Below are positions 14,120 to 41,196 of a DNA stretch of 41,196 nt, piece by piece. This stretch comes from Macrostomum lignano (lineage: Eukaryota). The DNA lies in assembly GCA_002269645.1 (NCBI GenBank), contig NIVC01002530.1:1-41196 (forward strand). The letters run 5' to 3'. Position numbers and translations under genes: made by a program. The notes under the pieces are model-generated. The model made no database searches. It saw only the letters and a program-made list of their open reading frames with translations, and had not been told where the DNA came from. Within the stretch, counting starts at the first letter, position 1, and the number at the start of each line of letters is the position of its first letter.

Positions 14120-14396
14120 TGTTGGGCCTGGTGCGTGGGGTTGGGGTGCGCTTTTACTCCGTGTATTGTTTGTGTTCTTAACTCTGTGCGTGTACTCTTG
14201 GTCCGTGGCTCACGCTCTTTGCACGTCTCTGCTCTATCGTGATTTTAATGTACATTGTTGGTGTTTTAGCCCTGGGGTGGGGGTGGCTACTATTGAACCT
14301 CGCTTGTAATAAATCGTATCGTTGGCGGTCGGTGCACTTGGCACTTTTGTCTTGTCTCGCATACTCTCAGCTCATGACTTGTTCATTTCAACATTT

Positions 14397-14414
14397 TGGC
14401 GTCGCGAGCAGGAT
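14397..14414 (+). promoter_or_regulatory. Primer-binding site, probably tRNA-Ser
   Basis: TGGCGTCGCGAGCAGGAT lies 3 nt after the 5' LTR. Its complement ATCCTGCTCGCGACGCCA resembles the 3' ends of eukaryotic tRNA-Ser(CGA/UGA). Confidence 0.7.
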
Positions 14415-14420
14415 CTACTG

Positions 14421-17400
14421 ATGTCTATAAAGCTACGAGACCCACTGCCTCTAAACAACATTGAAGAGTTGCGGGCATGGATCGAGGTCTTTGACGCCCA
14501 GGCGCGATCAAAAGGAGTGAAGGACACCGATCGCACTGATGACACAGCTGCACATCTGGCGTTGACCGATGCCTTCCTTGGCTGCCTTGGCGTGGCACAG
14601 CTCATCAAAGTGAAGCAGCTGGTCGCGCCCAAACCGCTCTCGCAGATGAAGTGGGCGGAAATCAAGGAGTGCCTCGTGAGGTTTCTGGAGCCCAAGAAGA
14701 GGCTGCTGATTGCCGAGAGAGCGGCTTTCATGTCCATGCGCCAAGGAGACGGCGAGACGGTTGCCGGCTTCGCTGCCCGACTTCAAGAGCAGGCGGTGGT
14801 GTGCGAATTCGAGAAGCTGAAGGGTGAGAATGTTGATCCAGCTGAGCAGCTGATCAAAATGCGCCTCATCGCCGGTCTCAGCAACCAGGAGGTCCGTAGC
14901 AAGGTTCTCGAGCGCGAAGTCTCCGCAGAGCTCTCGGTGAGCCAGATCACCGAGTACGTGCAGCAACTTCAGATGGTGAGCAAATTTTCGTTCGGGCCAC
15001 TGACTGCCTCCGGCCAAGCTGAAGGAGACTCGGCGGTGCATCAGGCATCGCCCGCTAGCCAGGAGGTGCCAGAAGAGGATTCTGCTGGTGCCAACAGCAT
15101 CAACGCGGCTGAGATGGTGAGGCCCAGAGCCGGTGGAGGCCAGAGCTGCCAGCGCTGCGGCCAGGCGCAACATTGCAGACCGACAGACTGCCGGGCCCTG
15201 AAGGTCACCTGTCACAAGTGCGGGAAGACTGGCCATTTCGCGAAGGTCTGCCGGAGTGCCAGGACCCACTTTGTCGCACCCAACGAATCCAAGCACTCTG
15301 ACTCAGCCGTGACCAGAGACGAGCCGGTTTTCTACTGCGGTGCGGGCACCCCTGCTGCATTCTGCGATGTGAAAATCAACAGAAGGCAGGTCAAAATGGA
15401 AAAGGACAGCGGCGCCTCGTGCTCACTAATCTCGAGAAAGATCTGGGAAGAACTCGGCAGGCCGCCACTGAAGTCGCCCAAGTCTCGGATGCTGGCCTAC
15501 GACGGGCACGTGATGAAGCAGCTCGGCATCCTGGAGTGCCTGGTGGAGACTGGCGGCCCTGATGGCCGCTTTGCTGCGGCGGAGCTGCCTGTCATCGAAT
15601 GCGAGCAGAAGTTCGGGTTGCTCGGCCGGGATCTGCTCAGCTTGCTGCCAGCTCACCACTCAGATGAGGCCAAGCCGCCCAGCAACAACAGGTACGAGAG
15701 CTTGTTGGGCATCAAGGGAGCAGTTGGCGAGATCCTGTTGAAGGCGGGAGCCAGGCCGATTTTCCAACCAGCCAGAGAGCTGGCGCTGGCGCTGCATCCA
15801 CTGGTGAAGAAGGAGCTGGACCTGATGGAGAAGGCGGGCATAGTTGAGAAGGTGACGTCCTCAGAGTGGGGCAGCCCCATAGTGGTGACGGTGAAATCCG
15901 ACAAGATGTCTGTGAGGATCTGCGGAGACTACACTGCTGTCAATCAGTGGGTGCAGGACCAGACGTACTTGACTCCATCCATCGAGACAGCCTTCTCAAA
16001 GATGGCAAACAAGAAGTTGTTCTGCCGACTGGATTTATCTGACGCTTATTATCAGGTTCCGCTGGAAAACGAGTCAAAAGACATCACCACGATCAACACC
16101 CCTTTCGGCTGCTACCGCTTTAACAGGCTGCCGTACGGCATCAAGGTTTCTCCGTCTGTGTTCCAGCGCGAGATGGAGAAGCTGCTGGGTGAGCACCCAA
16201 GTGTCATCGTGTACCAGGATGATGTGCTCATGGGAGCAGTGTCAAAGGCAGAGCTGCAGAATATCAGAGAGAAGGTGCTGGACAAGCTGAGGGCGGCTAA
16301 TGTGAAAATCAACAAAGCGAAGTGCATTTTGGAGGCCAGAAGCCTAAAGTTCCTGGGCCACATCATCGATGAAGAGGGGATCAAGCCGGATCCGGGAATG
16401 GTGCAGAAGATTCAGGATGTGGAGGCTCCGAAAAGCAAGAAGGATCTAGAGCGGTTTCTGGGCTTGGCGCAGTTCTATGGTCGGTTGGTTCCCAACTTTG
16501 CTGAGAAGTGTCGGCCTCTGCAAGAACTTCGTCGAGCGGACCGTGTGTTTGACTGGAGTGCGGCTGCCGAGGCAGCGTTCACCAATGTGAAGCAGAGCCT
16601 GAGCTCGAATCCGTGTGTGAAACCGTTTGACGTCAACTCGCCGGTGTGTCTGCGGGTGGATGCCAGCGAGCAGTCTCTGGGCGCTGTGCTGGTGCAGTCA
16701 GGGCACCCAGTCATGTACCTCTCTCGGGCGCTGACCAAGTCTGAGGCCAACTACTCCAACATTGAGCGGGAGGCTCTGGCCATTGTCTGGGCAGTGGAGC
16801 GAGCCCGCAAGATGCTCCTGGGGAAGAGGTTCACACTCCAGACTGACCACGAGCCACTGAAGTACATCTTCAATCCCAGCAAGAACCTTCCTAAAACAGT
16901 GTCGGCAAGACTAACTCGCTGGGCCCTGCGACTATCTGCTTTTGACTACGAAGTTGAGTATGTGCCAGGAAGACTGATGGTGGATGCGGATGCCTTGTCT
17001 CGTTTGAGTTTTGCTGCCCAAGACCCTCCAAGTGACGCCATGCACCAGTTGGAGCATGAAAAGGTCGTGTCAGAAGGAGCTCTTGTGACTCTGCAGGATC
17101 TTCGTGAGGGAACCAGGATGTGCGCGTTGATGAAGCGGCTGCAGCAGAGGATCAGAACAGGCCGGTGGGGCCAGGTGTCGCAGGTGGAGAGGCCGTACAA
17201 AGCGTGCCGGGAGGCGCTGTCGGTGGAAGATGGTCTGGTGATCCACGGAACCAGAATTGTGCCCCCACCTGTTCTCCGCAGGCGCATTCTGGAGGTGGCG
17301 CACGACGAGGTGCATCCGAGCGCCGACAACACCAAGGCGCACATCTCCAAGGAGTTCTGGTGGCCGGGTCTTGATCGCGATGTTCGCAGCTTTGTGGAGC

Positions 17401-18095
17401 GCTGCCAGCAGTGTTCAGAAACTCGGCCAGTCCTGCAGCGAAGAATCGACACCTGGCCAGCCGAGAGTGAGCCATGGTCCCGGGTTCACATGGACCATTG
17501 TGAGATTTCTGGTGTCGGCCTGCTACTGTTGCTGTCGGACTCCTACTCCGGGTGGCCTGAGGCGATTCAGGTGCCAGACCGAACTGCGGACAGTGTCCTG
17601 CGGGTTTTGAGAGCGGTATTTGCCAGGAACGGAGTGCTTCGGACGCTGGTGTCGGACAATGCGCCGGAGTTCAAGTCGGAGAAAGTGTCCCAGTGGCTGC
17701 GCAGCATCGGGTGCCAGGAGCTGCACACTCCACCGTACCATCCGGCCTCGAACGGTCAGGCAGAAAGGCTGGTGAGGATCATCAAGGATGGACTCAAGGC
17801 GTGGACGAAGATAGTGCCGTTCGACCACTTCCTGCAGAAACTGCTGCTGACGATCAGGACCAGCCGGCCCAGTGGAAATAGAGCGGCATCTCCGGACGTT
17901 CTGATGTGGGGTCGTCGCCTTCGCCACCCGCTAACCATGACTGAGCAGGTGGGCGATCCAATCTGGCTGAGGATGCGTCCGGGATTTTCGCCGGTTCCGG
18001 GCAAGTTCGTGGTGCAGCACGGCCAGAACACGGCTCTGGTAGCCCCTGCGGACCAATCGGACGGCGGCCTGCGGCTGGCGCACTCAAATCAGTGA
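14421..18095 (+). CDS. Gag-Pol polyprotein (1224 aa): gag with two Zn knuckles, protease, RT, RNase H, integrase
   Basis: CHKCGKTGHFAKVC knuckle; protease DSGAS; RT RICGDY/LDLSDAYYQ/YQDD; RNase H DAS…IEREAL…TDH; integrase H..H/CQQC, HMDH, SDNAPEF, GQAER. First ATG after the PBS is at 14421. Confidence 0.95.
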   Translation: MSIKLRDPLPLNNIEELRAWIEVFDAQARSKGVKDTDRTDDTAAHLALTDAFLGCLGVAQLIKVKQLVAPKPLSQMKWAEIKECLVRFLEPKKRLLIAERAAFMSMRQGDGETVAGFAARLQEQAVVCEFEKLKGENVDPAEQLIKMRLIAGLSNQEVRSKVLEREVSAELSVSQITEYVQQLQMVSKFSFGPLTASGQAEGDSAVHQASPASQEVPEEDSAGANSINAAEMVRPRAGGGQSCQRCGQAQHCRPTDCRALKVTCHKCGKTGHFAKVCRSARTHFVAPNESKHSDSAVTRDEPVFYCGAGTPAAFCDVKINRRQVKMEKDSGASCSLISRKIWEELGRPPLKSPKSRMLAYDGHVMKQLGILECLVETGGPDGRFAAAELPVIECEQKFGLLGRDLLSLLPAHHSDEAKPPSNNRYESLLGIKGAVGEILLKAGARPIFQPARELALALHPLVKKELDLMEKAGIVEKVTSSEWGSPIVVTVKSDKMSVRICGDYTAVNQWVQDQTYLTPSIETAFSKMANKKLFCRLDLSDAYYQVPLENESKDITTINTPFGCYRFNRLPYGIKVSPSVFQREMEKLLGEHPSVIVYQDDVLMGAVSKAELQNIREKVLDKLRAANVKINKAKCILEARSLKFLGHIIDEEGIKPDPGMVQKIQDVEAPKSKKDLERFLGLAQFYGRLVPNFAEKCRPLQELRRADRVFDWSAAAEAAFTNVKQSLSSNPCVKPFDVNSPVCLRVDASEQSLGAVLVQSGHPVMYLSRALTKSEANYSNIEREALAIVWAVERARKMLLGKRFTLQTDHEPLKYIFNPSKNLPKTVSARLTRWALRLSAFDYEVEYVPGRLMVDADALSRLSFAAQDPPSDAMHQLEHEKVVSEGALVTLQDLREGTRMCALMKRLQQRIRTGRWGQVSQVERPYKACREALSVEDGLVIHGTRIVPPPVLRRRILEVAHDEVHPSADNTKAHISKEFWWPGLDRDVRSFVERCQQCSETRPVLQRRIDTWPAESEPWSRVHMDHCEISGVGLLLLLSDSYSGWPEAIQVPDRTADSVLRVLRAVFARNGVLRTLVSDNAPEFKSEKVSQWLRSIGCQELHTPPYHPASNGQAERLVRIIKDGLKAWTKIVPFDHFLQKLLLTIRTSRPSGNRAASPDVLMWGRRLRHPLTMTEQVGDPIWLRMRPGFSPVPGKFVVQHGQNTALVAPADQSDGGLRLAHSNQ

Positions 18096-20062: not shown

Positions 20063-20703
20063 TGAAGTGACACATTTTGGCTCTAGAAAGTTCCTATCCA
20101 GATTGAATGTATTTTAACCAATGAATGCGCTCCAAATAGCAAAAGCTGAGGACACAACCCCAACGTCAACCAATGAAAAGCAGTTTTGTACCATCTAATG
20201 CAATTAAGACTGAAAAGTACTATAAAAGCTCATGTTAACCAAGCAAAAAGCTCGCCTCTCCACGCCCTTGCCTCTCTTTTGCCTTTCTCCTAGCCTACCT
20301 CCTTTGACTATTTTTGATTGACATAATTAGGGTCTCAACCCAAATGCTAAAACTGATAAATTGACTTACTAAAGCTAAACCAACACTAATCCACGTTTTA
20401 CAATAGACTGAACCTTCGGTTCACTCGAACAACTAGAAATACCTTGTGACTTAAATCGAACGAGCTTCTTATTTGGAATCCCATCTTAGACATTATATTT
20501 TGTGAAATAACATCTCAAGATTGTGACCATCAAATACAATGGTCTGTAAGTTAACATCAAGTGTTTGCATCATCAGGAAAAGTCAGTTGAATCCGCCGCC
20601 TCAGTTATTTGGCTCTCACATTGATATTTGAAGTAGAACAAGAGCTATAGAAGTGAGAGACCAGAAAAAGAACAATAACCCACATATATTTTAAAATATT
20701 TAA
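20063..20703 (+). mobile_element. Solo LTR of the Gypsy-2 family
   Basis: About 94% identical by eye to the reverse complement of 33753-34410. Starts TGAA; flanked by ATAT at 20059-20062 and 20704-20707 (4-bp TSD); contains two CCAAT boxes and TATAAAA. Confidence 0.88.
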
Positions 20704-33055: not shown

Positions 33056-33199
33056 TAAATATTTGAAATCATTCAGGCTTGTGCGTGAGACCATTTCCTT
33101 GAGGGTATAATAAGACAAATTGGTCGTCACTAAGCCGTAGATATGCGGTTGGGCCGGGCTAATAATCTGCTAAACGTAATAAAATAAAATCGAATTCCT

Positions 33200-33640
33200 T
33201 CATTGCTTCCTTCATGATCTTCGTCCCTTGCTCAATTTCGTTCGTAGCTCCGACGACGATGGTTCTTGTCGTCGTTTCCTCGTACTTGTCTGCGAGTTGC
33301 GGGGGGGAGGCTATGTCCTGACCTACACGTCCAGCGAATTCCAAAAGTTTGGTCGGTTCCGTCGGCTGCGGCCTTTCTTTGGCACGACGTATAGCGGCTT
33401 GGTGGTATATGTTGAACAGTACCGGCGATGTGGCACATCCTTCTCTCAGTCCCCGCTGTGGGTAGGAGGGTGTGCTTTTTTCTTCGTCAGAGATGACCAC
33501 ATACGCCGTTGCCTCGTGCAGATCTCGTAGCTTGTCGATAGCCGTCGCTGGCATTCCGTAGTGCGTAAGGAGTTGCCACAACGCCGGTTTATTGACGCGC
33601 GGGTAGGCTTTGCGGAGGTCGAGCAACTTGATGCTACAGT
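33200..33640 (-). mobile_element. Non-LTR retrotransposon (RTE-like) reverse transcriptase fragment, decayed
   Basis: LLDLRKAYPRVNKPALWQLLTHYGMP…LHE…GLREGCATSPVLFNIY matches RT motifs 3-4; the YADD region is scrambled. Confidence 0.78.
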
Positions 33641-33752
33641 CGCAGGTCAGGTGGAAAGGGTTTTTGTTCCATGCCATTGCTGTAGTCGCGGATGCAAGCT
33701 ATAACAAGAATGATGACGGATGCCAGGACAATTTCCACTGCCTAAGAGAAAT

Positions 33753-34410
33753 TGAAATATTTTAAAATATATGTTATTGTTCTTCTTCTGGTCTCTCACT
33801 TCTATGGCTCTTGTTCTACTTCAAATATCAATGTGAGAGCCAAATAACTGAGGCGGCGGATTCAACTGACTTTTCCTGATGATGCAAACACTTGATGGTA
33901 ACTTACAGACCGTTGTATTTGATGGTCACAATCTCGAGATGTTTTCTCACAAAATATAATGTCTAAGGTGGAATTCCAAATAAGAAGCTCGTTCGATTTA
34001 AGTCACAAGGTGTTTCTAGTTGTTCGGGTGAACCGAAGGTTCAGTCTATTGTGAAACGTGGATTGGGTGTTGGTTTGGCTTTAGTAAGTCGACTTATAAG
34101 TTTTGGTGTTTGGGTTGAGACCCTAACTGTGTCAATCAAAATAGTCAAACGAGGTAAGCTAGGAGAATGGCGAAGGAGAGGCAAGGGCGTGGAGAGGCGG
34201 AGCGAGCAGAAAAAAGGGCGAGCTTCTTGCTTGGTTAACATGAGCTTTTATAGTACTTTTCAGTCTTGATCGCATTGGATGGTACATAACTGCTTTTCAT
34301 TGGTTGAGGTTGGGGTCGTGTCCTCAGCTTTTGCTATTTGGAGCGCATTCATTGGTTAAAATACATTCAATCTGGATGGGAGCTTTCTAGAGCCAAAATG
34401 TATCACTTCA
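33753..34410 (-). mobile_element. 3' LTR of Gypsy element 2 (658 bp, TGAA…TTCA)
   Basis: Homology to the solo LTR at 20063-20703 defines the ends. Terminal inverted TGAA/TTCA; CCAAT x2 and TATAAAA on the minus strand; purine tract GAAAAATAGAGCGAA (34425-34411) directly upstream, in the same orientation as pol. Confidence 0.8.
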
Positions 34411-35053
34411 TTCGCTCTATTTTTCGGGGAAGCGAGGCCCTCCGAGCGCATAAAAACAGAAAAAGAATAGTAGGGGGTTAAAATTGATAAAATTGCAGAA
34501 AAAGATAACGCATTGTAGTGAACGAGAAAAGTTGTCGCAGAAAAAATAGTGCGCAGTGAATAATGTTAGCAAAAATGTTTGAGTAAAAGGGAACCAATTT
34601 AAGCAAGGTAACATAGGTTAAAGTACAACATCAGTTTAAATAGCGAAAGAAGGGATAGCGCAGAGGGCCTTTAGTTAGGCTAAGCTAAACTAGCTAAGCA
34701 AGGATGGAATAAAACGCAGCGAGGGTAACCAAAAAATCGATAAAATGGGTGTACAGAGCAAAATGGAGGTTTAGCGACGCAAGCTTAAAGTGAAAACGCG
34801 GTGAGTTAAAAGGAGGGTAATAAAAATCATTGTACATCGAAAGTTGGGGGGGGGGTTAGCGAGGAACCGCTCAGCTAATAAATCATGTACAAAGTAGAGG
34901 TTAAAATTTTAACTGGGGAAACGAAAAAGATAAAAATTCTAGGAAAAATTGTACAGTCCAAAGGGGGTATATAACACAAGGCTTTAAAATGGAGCAAGGC
35001 GAGTTAAGCGATTTTTTGACTGACGGTTAATAATCAAGTAAATTCGATTCATC

Positions 35054-35314
35054 ATGAGCACAAGGAAGAACTTGCGGTTTTTGCTAGGCGACTTAGCAAA
35101 GCGGTCCCAAGATGATTGGGACCTTGGCGACAGGCGGTGGGCGATCACGCTCGTCCTTCTCGCTGTGCTGGGAGTGCTGGTGCTGCTGCTGCTGCTGTGC
35201 CAATGTTGCCGTTGCTGTCGTTGTTGTCGGCGCAACTGCTGCAGGTCGGGCGCGCCTGGAGCGTCGACTGCGGTAGCAGATGTGGAGGCGCCGCCAGCGG
35301 AGTCGGTGGTGTAA
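35054..35314 (+). CDS. Putative 86-aa single-pass membrane protein with a Cys/Arg-rich juxtamembrane cluster (antisense to pol)
   Basis: ATCATGA start; TM segment WAITLVLLAVLGVLVLLLLL followed by CQCCRCCRCCRRNCCR; TATATAA at 34968-34974. Competing overlapping minus-strand ORFs exist. Confidence 0.45.
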   Translation: MSTRKNLRFLLGDLAKRSQDDWDLGDRRWAITLVLLAVLGVLVLLLLLCQCCRCCRCCRRNCCRSGAPGASTAVADVEAPPAESVV

Positions 35315-35861
35315 GAGCCGAGCTGCTTTGCTGGTTCGTCCGGCCTTCTGAACGCAACAACGGCCCTTTTCAGGGCCACCACTTGATGTGATGCCGAAGT
35401 TGTCAGATAAGCAGACTGTGCAGTCATGAAGGAACAAACGTTGTTGAGCCGTATGCTTTAGTGCTAGTTGGTTGACTTAGGTGAAAGCAGCGCCAGGGAC
35501 AGAGCGATTTGCAGAGACCAGGCATAGTGTAGGGCGATGGCTGCGTAGATCAAGGTTGTGGCTTGAATCCGGTTGAAGCAGCGCCAGAGACAGCAATTGG
35601 CAGTGACCAGGCACAGAGCAGCAGTCGTGTAGGTCAGGGTTGGGCAGGGTTGAGCAGGGTTGAGCAGGGTTGAGCAGGCTAGCGCGTGATGACTTTTGAA
35701 AAAGCAGTTGACAGAATAACAGAAAAAATAACATAAGCTTTACACAAGTGAGCGCAAAAGAGTGGAGGAGTAATTAATAGGCAGATAAATGAAAAATATT
35801 TTGAGTATTTTTGAACAATTTTTTGTAGTGTTTCAGCGCTCAATATTGAAGAAAAAGCGGA

Positions 35862-36818
35862 TTAAAATAGTGAGCGATGATGGTGAATCAAGTCATAAAA
35901 AAGAGCGTATGCCAGTCGAGCAAAATTAATATTAAGATCAGCAGGAGGAGAATGCTGAATACGCTTGGTGGGGAAGGTATGAAGAGCAGCATACTCTGGC
36001 AAGGTGTTAGGGTAGCCAACATGAGCATTTCGTACACGGTGAATATTGTATAAATATCGATGAAGCGGAGGACAAGAAAAAGGGAAGATAGTATGGGCAA
36101 CTACCGAGCGAGAATAAAAATCGATAATTATAAAGGCAAAGTTTCTTGAACGCGTTGAGAGAATGAAAACAGCGTGGGTGAAGAAAAAATTGTGCGGATA
36201 CAGACGATTTAGCGTGCGTATGATAGCGCTCTTAGTAGCACGAGGAAAAAACGGAGGAAAAATTTGATAAACATAAGGGGCGAGAGAATCGAAAGAGGTT
36301 AAATAATTTTGGAGCGTAGAAGTTAATTTTTGCGCCGAAAGATTAGCAGCATAATGGCGGAATTGTTGCCATGGGTAGCGCAGAGAGGAAAGCAGCAAAG
36401 GCCAAGTGTCTTGGTTAAAGCGCAGGCATGATTGAGGGAGAGTAGAAGCAGAGAGTTGGAAGAAATCGTCGATAGACATATCAGGAGAGAAAAGAAAATG
36501 TATGATTGGTACGAAGCTGCGGCTGAGAACATCATTCATAGTGGGAGAAAAGTTCTGTATACGTGGTCGTGAGTGAGTACGACGCAGCACACCAAATAGA
36601 CTAATTCGCAGAACGCGGAGCATCTTAGGATAAAAACGATGGCAGCGGATAACATAAAAACGCGAGAAGAAAGCGGAGGCCATGCGTAGCCGTTGGGGTT
36701 CACCAATAGTTTCAGAATAAAATATTGCTTCAGTGAACCAAGCAACAACGGTTGCGAGGCAAATAAGATCATGATTTAACTGTGGTCGGATATCCACTGG
36801 TTGCGGAAATGGATCCAT
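35862..36818 (-). CDS. ORF3 of Gypsy 2: unknown 318-aa protein (MDPFPQPVDIRPQ…)
   Basis: Uninterrupted 957-nt frame downstream of integrase (open from 37127). Candidate splice acceptor (polypyrimidine tract plus TTGCAG) at 36881-36880. No recognisable family. Confidence 0.65.
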   Translation of the reverse strand: MDPFPQPVDIRPQLNHDLICLATVVAWFTEAIFYSETIGEPQRLRMASAFFSRFYVIRCHRFYPKMLRVLRISLFGVLRRTHSRPRIQNFSPTMNDVLSRSFVPIIHFLFSPDMSIDDFFQLSASTLPQSCLRFNQDTWPLLLSSLRYPWQQFRHYAANLSAQKLTSTLQNYLTSFDSLAPYVYQIFPPFFPRATKSAIIRTLNRLYPHNFFFTHAVFILSTRSRNFAFIIIDFYSRSVVAHTIFPFSCPPLHRYLYNIHRVRNAHVGYPNTLPEYAALHTFPTKRIQHSPPADLNINFARLAYALFYDLIHHHRSLF

Positions 36819-37123
36819 AAGAGAAAGGAAAAAGGAGAAAAGCAATAGATACACAAAATATTGATTTAGCGTGTGAGCTCTGCAATGTAAAGAGGGAAAA
36901 GAGAGAAATTTTTGTAGCTTTTGTTGATAAAACGGAAAATAAAAGTTCATTTGTGTCAGTTTGTCAATACTCGTAGTCACGTAAAGAGTCGCAATGCAGG
37001 GAGAGAGAGCAAAATTGTTAGAAAAGAAGGAAAAAAGCAGAAGAGAAAGAAAGGAAGAGAAAGCAATATTGTCAGTCAAGGAAAAGAAAGGAGAAAAGAA
37101 ATTTAGAAGATTTTTTTTATCAT

Positions 37124-40100
37124 TCACGACTTCTTGTTCTTCGATCTTAGGTTGTAGCCGTGCGTCTGTGGCTGACCTGGTGGCTCATCAGTGGACGTGG
37201 TTTGCAGCGCGATGGACTTGCTCAATGGCGGCCGATGGTTGTGGTGGACCTGAATGTCATCAGTTGTGAACTCAGGTAGGTGACTAGGTCCAGCGCTGAG
37301 TCCATCTCCAGGCCAAGGTTTGAGCTTGGAGGCATGTACCACGATTGGTCGTTCGCTTGGCCGGTTGACATCAGAAATCAGTGCGTTCTGATCGGAGAGC
37401 CATGCTAATAGACGCATTGGGCCACGATAAGGATTGGAGAATTTTGTCTCCTTTGTTGCTGAGACATCCAAGTAGCATCGTGCACCTGGGCGTATGTAGC
37501 GGCGGTTGATCTTCTTGTCAGAGTTTTCAGCGCGCTGTTCAGCTGAGTTGTGCAGAAGTTCCTTGGCGACTTCTCTGGCAAGCAAAATAGCTGAACAGGT
37601 CAAATTGACTGGTTTAATAACGTCCATGTATGCAGTTGTCTGGTGTTCCATGATCCGTGCGTTGGGTGGCAGAAAGTCTCGAGCGAAGAACAGGTAGAAT
37701 GGTGATTCGTTCATCGTTGAGTGAGCGGCGGTATTGATTGCTAGTGTCACCGCGGGTAGGAAGTCAATCCAGAGATCTGGTTTGTCATGGACAAAGGCCG
37801 TAAGAGTTTGCTTCAGTGTCTTGTGTGCGCGTTCGACGAAGTTGCTAGATGGTTGGTACACCGAGGTGTAGATCAGGTGTATTCCAAGGGCACCCATAAA
37901 CTCTCGAAATTCTTGCGAGATGAATTGGGGTCCATTGTCTGAGATGATGTGTGCTGGTAGTCCTGCGAAAGCGAACACACGGTTGAAGAGGTTGTTGCAG
38001 ATAGTTGCAGAAGTTGTCTCAGTTAGCGGGATAGTGAACAGGAATTTGCTAACGCCGCATTGGGCCGTGAGTATGTACTTGTAGACGTCGCGGCCGTGGG
38101 AAGCTGGTGGCAGTGGTCCTACAAGGTCGATAGCCAAATGAGAAAAAACCTCGTTGAATTTGACGGCTTTGTGCAGCGGTCGCAGTCGAGGTGCTGTTTT
38201 CGCTTTGTGGCAGACTTCGCAGTTGTTAACGAAATTGAAGACGTCTTGCCGTAGTGTAGGCCAGTAATAGAAGTGATTGATTTTGTCAGCTGTCTTTTGG
38301 TGACCTAGATGACCACCAAGGGCTGTCGAGTGGTTACTGGTCAAAAGAGCTTCACGGTAGCGTGTTGGTATCACGAGGCGGCTTCGTCCTTCGTCATCTT
38401 CAAAGTATAGAGTGTTTCCGTCCAGGAAATAACGTGCCAGGTGTCGGCGAACATATTGTTGGTCTTTCTTGGACAGCTCGTGAGTGGGTGATTTTTCCGA
38501 TAGAAGTGCTTTGATTGTTGACAGTAATGGGTCTTGATCAATGGCATCCTGCAGTCCGTTGAATGTTGACAGCGATTGTATCTGACAGACTTTGGGATGC
38601 GTGAAAGGCAGTCCGCTTCTACGTTTGATTTGCCTTTCACATAGTTGAGAGTGAAGTTGTAATCTTGTAGCGCTAGAATCCACTTCTGAAGTCGTTTTGA
38701 GATAGGTTGCTTGTCACTGAATAGACTCTTGAGTGGCTGGTGATCAGTGAAGACGTGGAATTGTTGGTAAGAGGCGTAGAGGAACACGTGTAGCTTCTTT
38801 ATTGCCCAATAGATGGCGTATGCTTCGCGTTCAATCGGTGGATAGCGTTGTTCGGTTGGACTTAACGTCTTAGAAATGTAGGCAACCGGGCGTTGGTGGT
38901 TGCTGTCGTCTAGCTGTGAGAGTACTGCTCCAATGGCGGTATCCGAAGCATCAGTGTGCAGAAAGTACGGTTTTCGCGGATTTGGATGAACCAGTAGTAT
39001 ATCCGTAGAGAGAAGTTGTTTCAGCTTTTCAAAGGCTGCTTGGGCGGCGTTTGTCCAGACGAATTTGTTAGGCTTCGAAGTATTTTTGATGATACTCAGA
39101 AGTGGTTGTACTACTCGTGAGTAGCCAGCAATGTGCGTTCGGTAGAAATTTGCAAGTCCAAGGAAAGATTGTAGTTGTTTAACCGTTTGAGGCACAGGGA
39201 AGGTCTTGATTTTCTCGATGAGGCTGGGTGCGGGTCTAATGCCTTGAGCAGAAACCACAAATCCAAGATATTGTACCTCTGTTTTGGCAAAGATGCATTT
39301 TCGTAGTGAAATTCGCAATCCATGATGTCGTAACTTTTGGAAGAAGCGTTCGATTTCTTTGAGCATGCCGGTGAAGTCTTCGGCGATGAGCATGACGTCA
39401 TCCAAGTAGGCAATCTGATTTGGAGAGTCAGCTGTTAACAATGCTACAAGACGGCACATTAAGCTAGGACTGGACTTGAGTCCTTGAGGTAGTCGATTGA
39501 ATTCCCAAAGTAGGCCGTTGGGTGCAATGAACGCAGTGTATTTTGTGCTTTCTGGATCGATCCGAACTTGGTAGAAAGCATCTGCTAGGTCACAGAGTGT
39601 GTACAGTTTAGCGTTTTTCAATCGATGTAGCAAATCCGGAATCTTAGGAGGTCGGATGCTAGGAGCACGAATTAGCTTGTTCAGTTTTCGGTAATCCGTC
39701 ACGAGTCTTAGTTGTCGGCGACCTTGAGCGTCGAGCGTCTTCTTTTCCACGAGAAGACATGGACTTGAGTATTCCGATTCACTCGGACTGATGATTCCTT
39801 TTTGACGGAAGTTTTCGATGAGCTCATCAAACCGTTCTTGTAGTCCATGAGCGATTGGATAGGGTCTGGACGTGACTGGCTCAGAGTGTGGGTGTAGATG
39901 CAGGTGAGCCGTGTATTGGGTAGAGCAACCCATGTCGGTTGGCAGTAGTGCCAAGACGTCACGGTACTTGTTCATTAGAGTAACTAATTGTTCACTCTGC
40001 TCGGTTGAGAGGTGCTGGTTGGCTTGTTTGAGTTGAGTACGGATCATGTCAGTCGTAGGTGCTTCTTGTTGCAGCGTGCGGAGACTGTTGATTTGAGCTG

Positions 40101-40836
40101 CTGGGCGCACGATGTTGTAGTCAGACATGTTAGCCAGATTCCAATGACTTGTTGAGGATGCAAGGTTTGCGTTGTCAGCGACGGGTTGGCAATTTCCACA
40201 GTGATAGTTTGTCCGTCCGGGTTGACGAAACAAGGCAAGTTGGTATCATCAACTGGTGTTTTCTGGATCGTGTGGTCCTTAGGGACGAACAGGACAGGAA
40301 TCGTTGGCTCATGTCGAGAAGAGAGTTTCAGCGTGACTTGGTGCGTTGTCTGTGGTGGTAACTCTAGCTTGTTTTGCATCACCGCAGAGGTTTCTTGCAA
40401 CTGTTGGATGGAGTTGAGCATCGCAAATTGCTCATTGCCAAGCTTAGCTGTCGCTTTCGAGTAGTCGAATTGTAGTGGTATTCCCAGTGACTTAAAGGTT
40501 TCTACTCCTAAGAGGCAAATCATAGTCAGCGTCGGGGGTGTCGAGCACAAAGGCCGATATCTTGTGGTTGCGTCCATCGATTTCGAGATCAAAAGTAGCC
40601 TTTTTGTTGAGGTTTAGTTGTTGTCCTCCTGCACAAATGGCGTTCATGTTGGTGTCTTGTAATGGTACTCGAAGCTTTTTGGCGAATGCCGGTGAGATGC
40701 AGGAGATCGAGGCGCCGCTGTCAATGAGGGCGGTGCATCTGTGTCGAGTATGCGGTGCGTTGCGGCACCACAGTTGATCATAGTTGCTGTTGTTAGATGC
40801 TTCAAAACAAAGGCGTATGAGTAGTTTGCTGGCCAT
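37124..40836 (-). CDS. Pol of Gypsy 2 (protease, linker, RT, RNase H, integrase with GPY/F), split by three apparent 1-bp frameshifts at about 40518, 40140 and 38593
   Basis: ALIDSGAS; RLVTDYRKLN, CDLADAFYQ, RLPQG, YLDD; TDAS…IEREA…TDHQPL; H..GGH/CEVC, AIDLVGP, SDNGPQF, VERAH; PYRGP; ends GYNLRSKNKKS*. Confidence 0.92.
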
Positions 40837-40941
40837 TTTGGAACTTTAGGTTCTGGCGGTGGTCTCCGTGGTGGCGGAAGGGTGGCACGAAGTTCAATCG
40901 TTTCGATGGTGCCGAGGGTGTTGGCGCTTGTCTCGGTGGTA

Positions 40942-41196
40942 TCAGTTGCTGTTGTTGGGAGTATCGTTTCGTGATTCCACTCGAGTTGGAGTTCGTTGTT
41001 GGCCGCAGCACTTGTATAGTGTGCGTTCTGCCGTACGGATGGTGCTGGCGACGCAGAGTCGGCCAAGATTGCACACGAAGATAATAACGGCAATGTAGAC
41101 GATTACAGCTGCTGTTAAGACGAACTTTTCTTGATAGTTTGCGACTAGTCGATCCCAGTTGAATATCGACGAAGACATAGATTGAAGAGAGCGAGT
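40942..41196 (-). CDS. Transmembrane-segment ORF immediately upstream of protease (frame open to the window edge)
   Basis: …SSSIFNWDRLVANYQEKFVLTAAVIVYIAVIIFVCNLGRLC…KCC…: a 19-residue hydrophobic stretch with downstream Cys; no gag knuckle here. Confidence 0.45.
   Translation of the reverse strand, partial: TRSLQSMSSSIFNWDRLVANYQEKFVLTAAVIVYIAVIIFVCNLGRLCVASTIRTAERTLYKCCGQQRTPTRVESRNDTPNNSN

Follow-up and report, generated by a model that had tools for sequence, protein, structure and literature searches.

The contig NIVC01002530.1 of the flatworm Macrostomum lignano (assembly GCA_002269645.1) ends in a retroelement whose 3' part contains open reading frames (ORFs) on both strands, raising the question of whether these are genes and, if so, how a gene that runs against the element ends its message. 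The window that we analysed is this one entire contig, 41,196 nt long, and the genome searched comprises 764 Mb. The final 7.4 kb of the window lead, on the minus strand, from the end of a membrane protein through a Ty3/gypsy pol and a 2.7-kb gap to a 658-bp long terminal repeat (LTR). Our reading is that this young element, which comprises gag, pol and an envelope of the gB type, on balance probably also has an antisense gene, complete in itself, for a small membrane protein, whose message would likely end at a histone-type stem-loop. A first-pass annotation of the sequence had picked out the two ORFs discussed first, and both were confirmed: one of 318 amino acids (aa) in the gap between the integrase stop and the LTR, and one on the opposite strand, of 86 aa, Cys-rich and with a single transmembrane (TM) segment.

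The antisense gene and its 3' end

The features of the gap that concern these ORFs are the following:

34958..34977, plus strand: TATA-like box of the antisense gene, with TATATAA at 34968-34974, about 80 nt before the ATG; candidate promoter
35054..35314, plus strand: antisense microprotein gene, 86 aa, with an N-terminus of about 29 aa, one TM helix, a Cys/Arg cluster and C-terminal ESVV
35349..35394, plus strand: histone-type 3' end, with TGAACG, a 16-nt stem-loop (35362-35377), ACCA and a downstream TGATGC (35389-35394)
35862..36818, minus strand: ORF3, 318 aa, an orphan under purifying selection, with no homolog

The ORF3 region has matches at 18 places in the genome, with 91-100% identity, and we retrieved both flanks of the 17 other copies where the contig reached; most comparisons use 16 copies. 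A genome search also found sister families with open frames of up to 2,866 codons; the window family is designated A and the others B to H. Our tree of reverse transcriptase (RT)-RNase H contains in-genome rows only, and family H, from which no RT piece was recovered, is outside both the tree and the seven-family counts given below.

The antisense ORF is open in 15 of the 16 copies, and its full-length frames vary in length without frameshift, while ORF3 is open with the same end in 10, is 309 aa long in three and is broken in three. The ratio of non-synonymous to synonymous polymorphism (pN/pS) was 0.32 for the antisense ORF (no stops) and 0.33 for ORF3, as compared with 0.47-0.96 for non-coding controls; gag, env and pol gave 0.10-0.24. 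Variable sites were distributed over codon positions 1/2/3 as 31/18/65 in the antisense ORF and as 30/20/48 in ORF3, with a third-position excess in both (p=2e-7 and p=1e-3, respectively), and the codon-position bias of the non-coding controls was not significant. Given the low pN/pS and this excess, both accessory ORFs are very probably real protein genes. The first-pass annotation had allowed that they might not be conserved among copies; both are under purifying selection.

An antisense ORF of the same design, a TM helix followed by Cys residues and a basic tail, occurs in families A, B, C, D and E and is absent from F and G (five of seven families), and was found in none of 300 Markov-shuffled gaps per family, by criteria fixed after the ORFs were seen. 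Its C-termini are ESVV in family A, ETAV in B and ETEV in C, which we take to be a class I PDZ-binding pattern (E-S/T-x-V); in several copies of A the ending is EAAV instead. The antisense frame might instead be the shadow of an overlapping sense ORF (34984-35457, minus strand), itself the selected frame, since the two share their third codon positions and the sense frame shows a pN/pS of 0.41 and no stops in the overlap. However, frameshifts or truncations break the sense frame in 7 of the 16 copies, 15 of which have an open antisense frame, and across the five families the TM-Cys-basic design recurs on the antisense strand only, so that this explanation is largely refuted and we consider it exceedingly improbable. 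The TATA-like box is retained between the window and a divergent lineage (L051) amid otherwise dissimilar DNA; 13 of 16 copies contain the strict pattern and two more a close variant, and similar boxes occur in families B and C.

On the strand of the antisense ORF, 47 nt past its stop (47-88 nt across families, 63-123 nt in host histone genes), there is a 16-nt stem-loop, matched by Rfam Histone3 (RF00032) at 35357-35403 with 33.2 bits and an E-value of 4e-7. This stem-loop had escaped the first-pass annotation. It comprises TGAACG, a hairpin identical to that of the host H2A, H2B, H3 and H4 genes, ACCAC and, at 11 nt, TGATGC. RT-RNase H is 75-77% identical among families A, B and C, and the only blastn match among their 3' gaps is a block of 26-48 nt that holds the hairpin. 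All 16 copies retain the six-pair stem, 12 of them identical to the host, three with a wobble and one with a loop change. One stem pair, examined over nine rows, is C-G in seven, U-A in one and U-G in one, and family B has a compensatory pair; the downstream TGATG(T/C) is in register at 11 nt in A and C. These alignments show that the hairpin, together with flanking motifs of the host histones, has been kept in three families. We rejected a conserved read-through of the antisense stop, because stop-to-hairpin spacings of 47, 48 and 50 nt break the frame.

Host histone ends and the proposed antisense message

The hairpin pattern has 114 matches in the genome, and none with the reversed control. 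We retrieved 60 stretches around listed matches, leaving out known A and B copies, and thereby sampled 76 hairpins. Histone genes, recognised by their peptide motifs, precede 45 of these, and five are unclassified in histone clusters; three belong to elements of family B or C, and the other 23 occur in further repeats or in DNA that stayed unclassified. At the core-histone genes of the host, GAACG-x-TAAAAC is followed by the 16-nt hairpin, then by ACCA and, in most cases, by TGATG(T/C) 11-12 nt further on; GAACG, the 16-mer and ACCA are common to all 27 distinct ends, and TGATG(T/C) is present in 15. The genome also encodes SLBP, with nine identical-scoring matches of its RNA-binding domain (G000:C130, C732 and six more contigs).

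In the model that we favour, the antisense gene would be transcribed from its own TATA box, and the machinery that makes the histone 3' ends of the host would cut its RNA just past the hairpin, with SLBP bound; histone-type processing of this message seems to us quite likely. Translation of such a message would take place mainly during S phase, in flatworms a state of stem and germ cells, and its expression would coincide with the cells in which new insertions are inherited. The complete proposal, that the antisense message lacks poly(A), is controlled by SLBP and restricts its accessory membrane product to those stem and germ cells that are in S phase, appears evenly balanced between true and false. 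The product may be a palmitoylated membrane protein with its N-terminus outside and its C-terminus inside and, like coronavirus E or FAST-type proteins, could aid particle budding or passage at cell contacts. These are the steps of which we are least sure, and a role in particle assembly or spread is put forward tentatively.

Several observations weigh against this proposal. The Rfam score is 0.8 bit below the cut-off of 34, as is true of many host histone ends that likewise score under it; at the gathering threshold there were no matches in 11 sources, and the hairpin surfaced only by E-value. The one covariation in the stem does not reach significance (95 of 500 shuffles), one copy (L049) has the loop change, and within family A the hairpin, with 2 of 20 sites variable as compared with 82/531 and 72/401 in non-coding DNA, is not clearly more conserved than its surroundings. 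In copies L051 and L053 the antisense ORF has lost its stop and extends past the expected cut site, with a wobble in the stem, and a third copy of the lineage, L052, is broken; this lineage is decaying. Family B lacks an exact downstream motif, and D and E have the antisense TM ORF without the hairpin, indicating that the protein does not always need it. Since 23 of the 76 sampled hairpins lie in other repeats or in unclassified DNA, their capture may be easy. No U7 small nuclear RNA was found by Rfam, and a U7 pattern search gave 81 matches, below the 735 of its control. The microprotein has no homolog that we could find, and its look-alikes in a protein atlas (SMIM22, influenza NB and M2, a geminivirus movement protein and coronavirus E) all scored <0.9 and are leads only. 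Finally, the stretch is present in 19 of 24 sequencing runs, 14 of these guessed to be RNA, and contigs from four runs cover it, from which transcript strand, ends and level are not readable.

The hairpins in other repeats, the families that manage without one, the decaying lineage and the missing U7 would all be accommodated if the ancestor of families A to C had acquired the hairpin once, from a histone message or a hairpin repeat, and it persisted only to terminate or stabilise the RNA, uncoupled from the cell cycle. However, all the DNA around it has become unalignable, and yet the hairpin is still in register with the upstream AACG, with ACCA and, in A and C, with the motif downstream, for which a mere terminator would have no use; we thus regard this history as quite unlikely. 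Alternatively, the hairpin could serve to limit the element, its histone-type antisense RNA feeding the piRNA pathway or pairing with genomic RNA, and its protein blocking re-entry (superinfection exclusion). Viruses are known to down-regulate receptors by means of small TM accessory proteins. According to the available text of PMC10954484, planarian stem-loop histone transcripts give PIWI-bound piRNAs, and such piRNAs would here be antisense to the 3' region of the element. Selection acts, however, on the protein sequence and not on RNA alone, and the family, with its LTR pairs of 100% identity, is recently active, which makes this limiting function doubtful. We retain cell-cycle-dependent expression of the antisense gene as the preferred explanation.

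Among the sampled hairpins, several belong to other repeats. A repeat of ~0.65-1.5 kb with terminal inverted repeats of ~100 bp (L139, L143, L180, L183 and L186; e.g. G000:C195:406657 and C40:1131735) has a histone stem-loop behind a short Cys-rich ORF, which we take to resemble the N-terminus of a Merlin/IS1595 transposase. A dispersed repeat of ~120-170 bp, 75-98% alike, is centred on the stem-loop with no upstream histone gene (L153-L155, L174, L178, L184, L187, L189, L190 and L192), and two further repeat groups bear the hairpin (L158/163/171/179/185 and L160/169).

Envelope, polyprotein and flanking repeats

The remaining features of the element in the window are the following:

40942..41196, minus strand: C-terminal end of a gB-type envelope, with its membrane anchor (~41060-41125); the remaining env, gag, leader and 5' LTR are beyond the contig end
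37124..40845, minus strand: pol part of the polyprotein (protease, RT, RNase H and integrase, by Pfam), with six one-base indel sites in this assembly
34411..34424, minus strand: purine-rich tract directly before the LTR, a putative polypurine tract by its position
33753..34410, minus strand: 3' LTR, TGAAGT...TTTCA, 658 bp, with the same ends in 16/16 copies; next to the 5' copies comes a primer-binding site (PBS) that begins with TGG
20063..20703, plus strand: solo LTR of this family, with 90% identity and ATAT on both sides

The membrane-anchor ORF had been placed where the C-terminus of gag is expected, in an element supposed to lack a classical env. Neither idea survived: the TM ORF anchors a gB-type envelope of ~880 aa, the rest of which is beyond the contig end, and a full class III fusogen of the gB type lies between gag and pol. 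One natural copy has a single open frame of 2,086 codons, from Gag through into RT, that encodes in this order Gag with zinc knuckles, an internal hydrophobic signal, an ectodomain (Cys-rich, with a Thr-rich insert and furin sites), the same TM helix as in the window, protease and RT. Eight families have in common a signal peptide, a furin site that precedes the anchor by 269-295 aa and, behind the anchor, a protease, whose motif falls outside the open piece in one of these families. Single-sequence searches with the envelope gave two irrelevant matches and weak ones to cytomegalovirus gB (E 0.11-0.39), and its identity was settled by a profile of the eight natural ectodomains, which matched Epstein-Barr virus gB with an E-value of 3e-14, all 12 matches being gB; five of the eight members also matched PF24664. 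With Foldseek, a model of the ectodomain of the window family (pLDDT 58, low in the Thr-rich insert) matched herpes simplex virus gB with an E-value of 4e-14 and probability 1.00. Two points are thereby shown for this element: its gene order, with one frame that runs through gag, envelope and pol, and the gB fold of the envelope. Such a polyprotein would be threaded through the membrane of the endoplasmic reticulum, with cytosolic Gag, signal peptide, a lumenal, furin-cut gB ectodomain, anchor and cytosolic Pol.

The assignment of pol to Ty3/gypsy held: Pfam domains in the minus-strand ORFs of the window follow the order protease, RT, RNase H and integrase, with an H2C2 integrase, and paired LTRs, a PBS and a target duplication were read in other copies. 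The PBS presumably pairs with tRNA-Glu; one exact-pattern search found no host tRNA gene for it. From the integrase stop at 37124 to the LTR (34410-33753, TG..CA) there are ~2.7 kb, as annotated, and this LTR is not that of another element, a possibility raised at the outset, because it precedes a PBS and gag leader in 9 of the 14 upstream stretches examined. The solo LTR (20063 to ~20703) is also as described, in the opposite orientation. An AAAT flank had been predicted for the 5' LTR. A contig overlapping the window end (80 nt, 95%) bears a 5' LTR that is 99.2% identical, with a flank that differs from AAAT at one of the four letters, and for this reason it may derive from another copy. Among six copies tested, the two LTRs are 100% identical in three, 98.6-98.8% in two and 95.8% in one, and the 4-bp flanks match in five, including all three with identical LTRs; judging from these pairs and flanks, the family has evidently been recently active.

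Three 1-bp indels had been counted in pol, an underestimate: as compared with at least 12 of 16 other copies, positions 37124-41196 contain 11 one-base indel sites, six of them in pol, and contigs from short-read runs disagree with the window at 10 of the 11. Assembly error is the likely cause, since every copy shows 10-28 indel sites relative to the window and those not shared are mostly singletons.

Some copies depart from this layout. One (L032/L052, G000:C1861), with LTRs 98.8% identical, lacks most of env, the protease and part of RT and is nevertheless in frame from gag to pol. Two tandem copies with one LTR in common occupy G000:C172:390600-418200; their outer flanks, TTAA and GTAG, are apparently swapped in other contigs (C2365, C3266 and C1695), suggesting recombination or misassembly. 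The 5' leader, read in copies outside the window (L113, L114, L119, L032 and L110), is either 2.5 or ~4.3-4.5 kb long, the long form having an optional cassette of ~2 kb with a sense ORF of 195-269 aa, without a Pfam match in L032, and an antisense Trp/Arg-rich ORF of 86-93 aa that is kept across sub-lineages, 81% alike. Elsewhere in the window, 14313-18092 (plus strand) is a second, unrelated LTR-type element with an open frame of 1,260 codons and an RT-RNase H that is 33% identical. Another RT fragment (RVT_1, E 3e-9; 33159-33698, minus strand) adjoins the LTR, and the window element may therefore have inserted into an older retroelement.

ORF3 had no Pfam match and no atlas match, and none of 717 candidates of near length reached E<=1; its sole match among 1.84 billion representatives was a tandem-repeat artefact, and its fold model (pLDDT 35) was unusable, so that no fold search was made with it. 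The same slot holds an unrelated ORF of 253-260 aa in families D and E, a resemblance seen by eye being ruled out by hhalign (probability 0.4%), and two RING-finger ORFs each in F and G (L105:2773-3799 and L107:6102-7260), the first of family G beginning MGNALS, a myristoylation-type start. A frameshifted fragment of ORF3 (residues ~108-300, 82% identical) occurs at three places without matching neighbouring element DNA (L057-L059; G000:C87, C2152 and C2121).

Relation to known systems

The gag-env-pol arrangement is already published: PMC13524379 describes Ty3/gypsy "ancient errantiviruses" with this gene order and an HSV/gB-type ENV in Platyhelminthes, Bryozoa and Nematoda, and our element belongs to that group on the two features tested, an env between gag and pol and its gB type. 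As far as the available text of that source goes, the likeness extends to the Ty3/gypsy pol, the LTRs and the multiple copies. Its entry Platyhelminthes_Rhabditophora_Mlig_errantivirus_2 (LTR ~864 nt, PBS GCGAGATCACCA) fits our family G (LTR 870, same PBS), whereas the window family has an LTR of 658 nt, another PBS and an RT-RNase H 40% identical to that of G; eight of the nine rhabditophoran rows are given without LTR or PBS data. The available main text does not mention "accessory" or "single ORF", and the antisense gene and the stem-loop were not searched for there. These gag-env-pol elements emerge as genomes of retrovirus-like complexity, in which accessory cassettes on both strands, such as orphans, RING fingers and small membrane proteins, can be swapped.

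Plant Retand elements reportedly have antisense extra ORFs. Bdelloid LTR retrotransposons have non-env ORF3 cargo (PMC5408684, in the text available, which does not mention "histone"), and our families share with both systems the presence, from pol to the 3' LTR, of extra ORFs that are specific to each family; they differ in that ORF3 matches no family, its place being taken in sister families by unrelated ORFs or RING fingers. The microprotein is close in design to the sORF2/FAST-like proteins of MDG1-group LTR retrotransposons (PMC11952523, in the part available); common to both are a short length, in the range of 63-107 aa, an N-terminal part of ~30 aa, a single TM helix and a basic juxtamembrane region. 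However, sORF2 is myristoylated, sense and encoded by env-less elements, whereas the microprotein is antisense, Cys-rich, without the MGxxxS/T motif and found beside a full envelope, and thus falls outside the sORF2 definition. There was no sequence homology to sORF2/FAST proteins, the best match being Orthoreo_P10 with an E-value of 0.15, in family D only. By analogy, the microprotein would resemble a small viral membrane protein in its working, and a role in cell-to-cell spread is possible.

What appears new is an antisense gene with a conserved TATA-like box that ends in a histone 3' stem-loop. To our knowledge, this ending is taught as exclusive, in animals, to replication-dependent histone mRNAs. 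The literature searched, judged from listings that do not extend to most subscription journals, Repbase reports or bioRxiv supplements, contains no report of a histone stem-loop on a mobile-element gene, and the available text of bioRxiv 10.64898/2026.10.14.759114 mentions neither "transpos" nor "non-histone". If our proposal is correct, a mobile element that keeps the stem-loop on a selected gene across three diverged families would have found a new way to follow the cell cycle of its host and to direct itself to stem cells, and histone 3'-end processing would have a non-histone, parasite-encoded client whose message poly(A) RNA-seq would miss. As in a replication-dependent histone 3' end, there are a 6-bp stem, a 4-nt loop and ACCA shortly past a stop, with flanks identical to those of the host; downstream, the element has the TGATG(T/C) of the host rather than a motif of the purine-rich AAGA type, and here the histone-type end closes a non-histone gene inside a retrotransposon.

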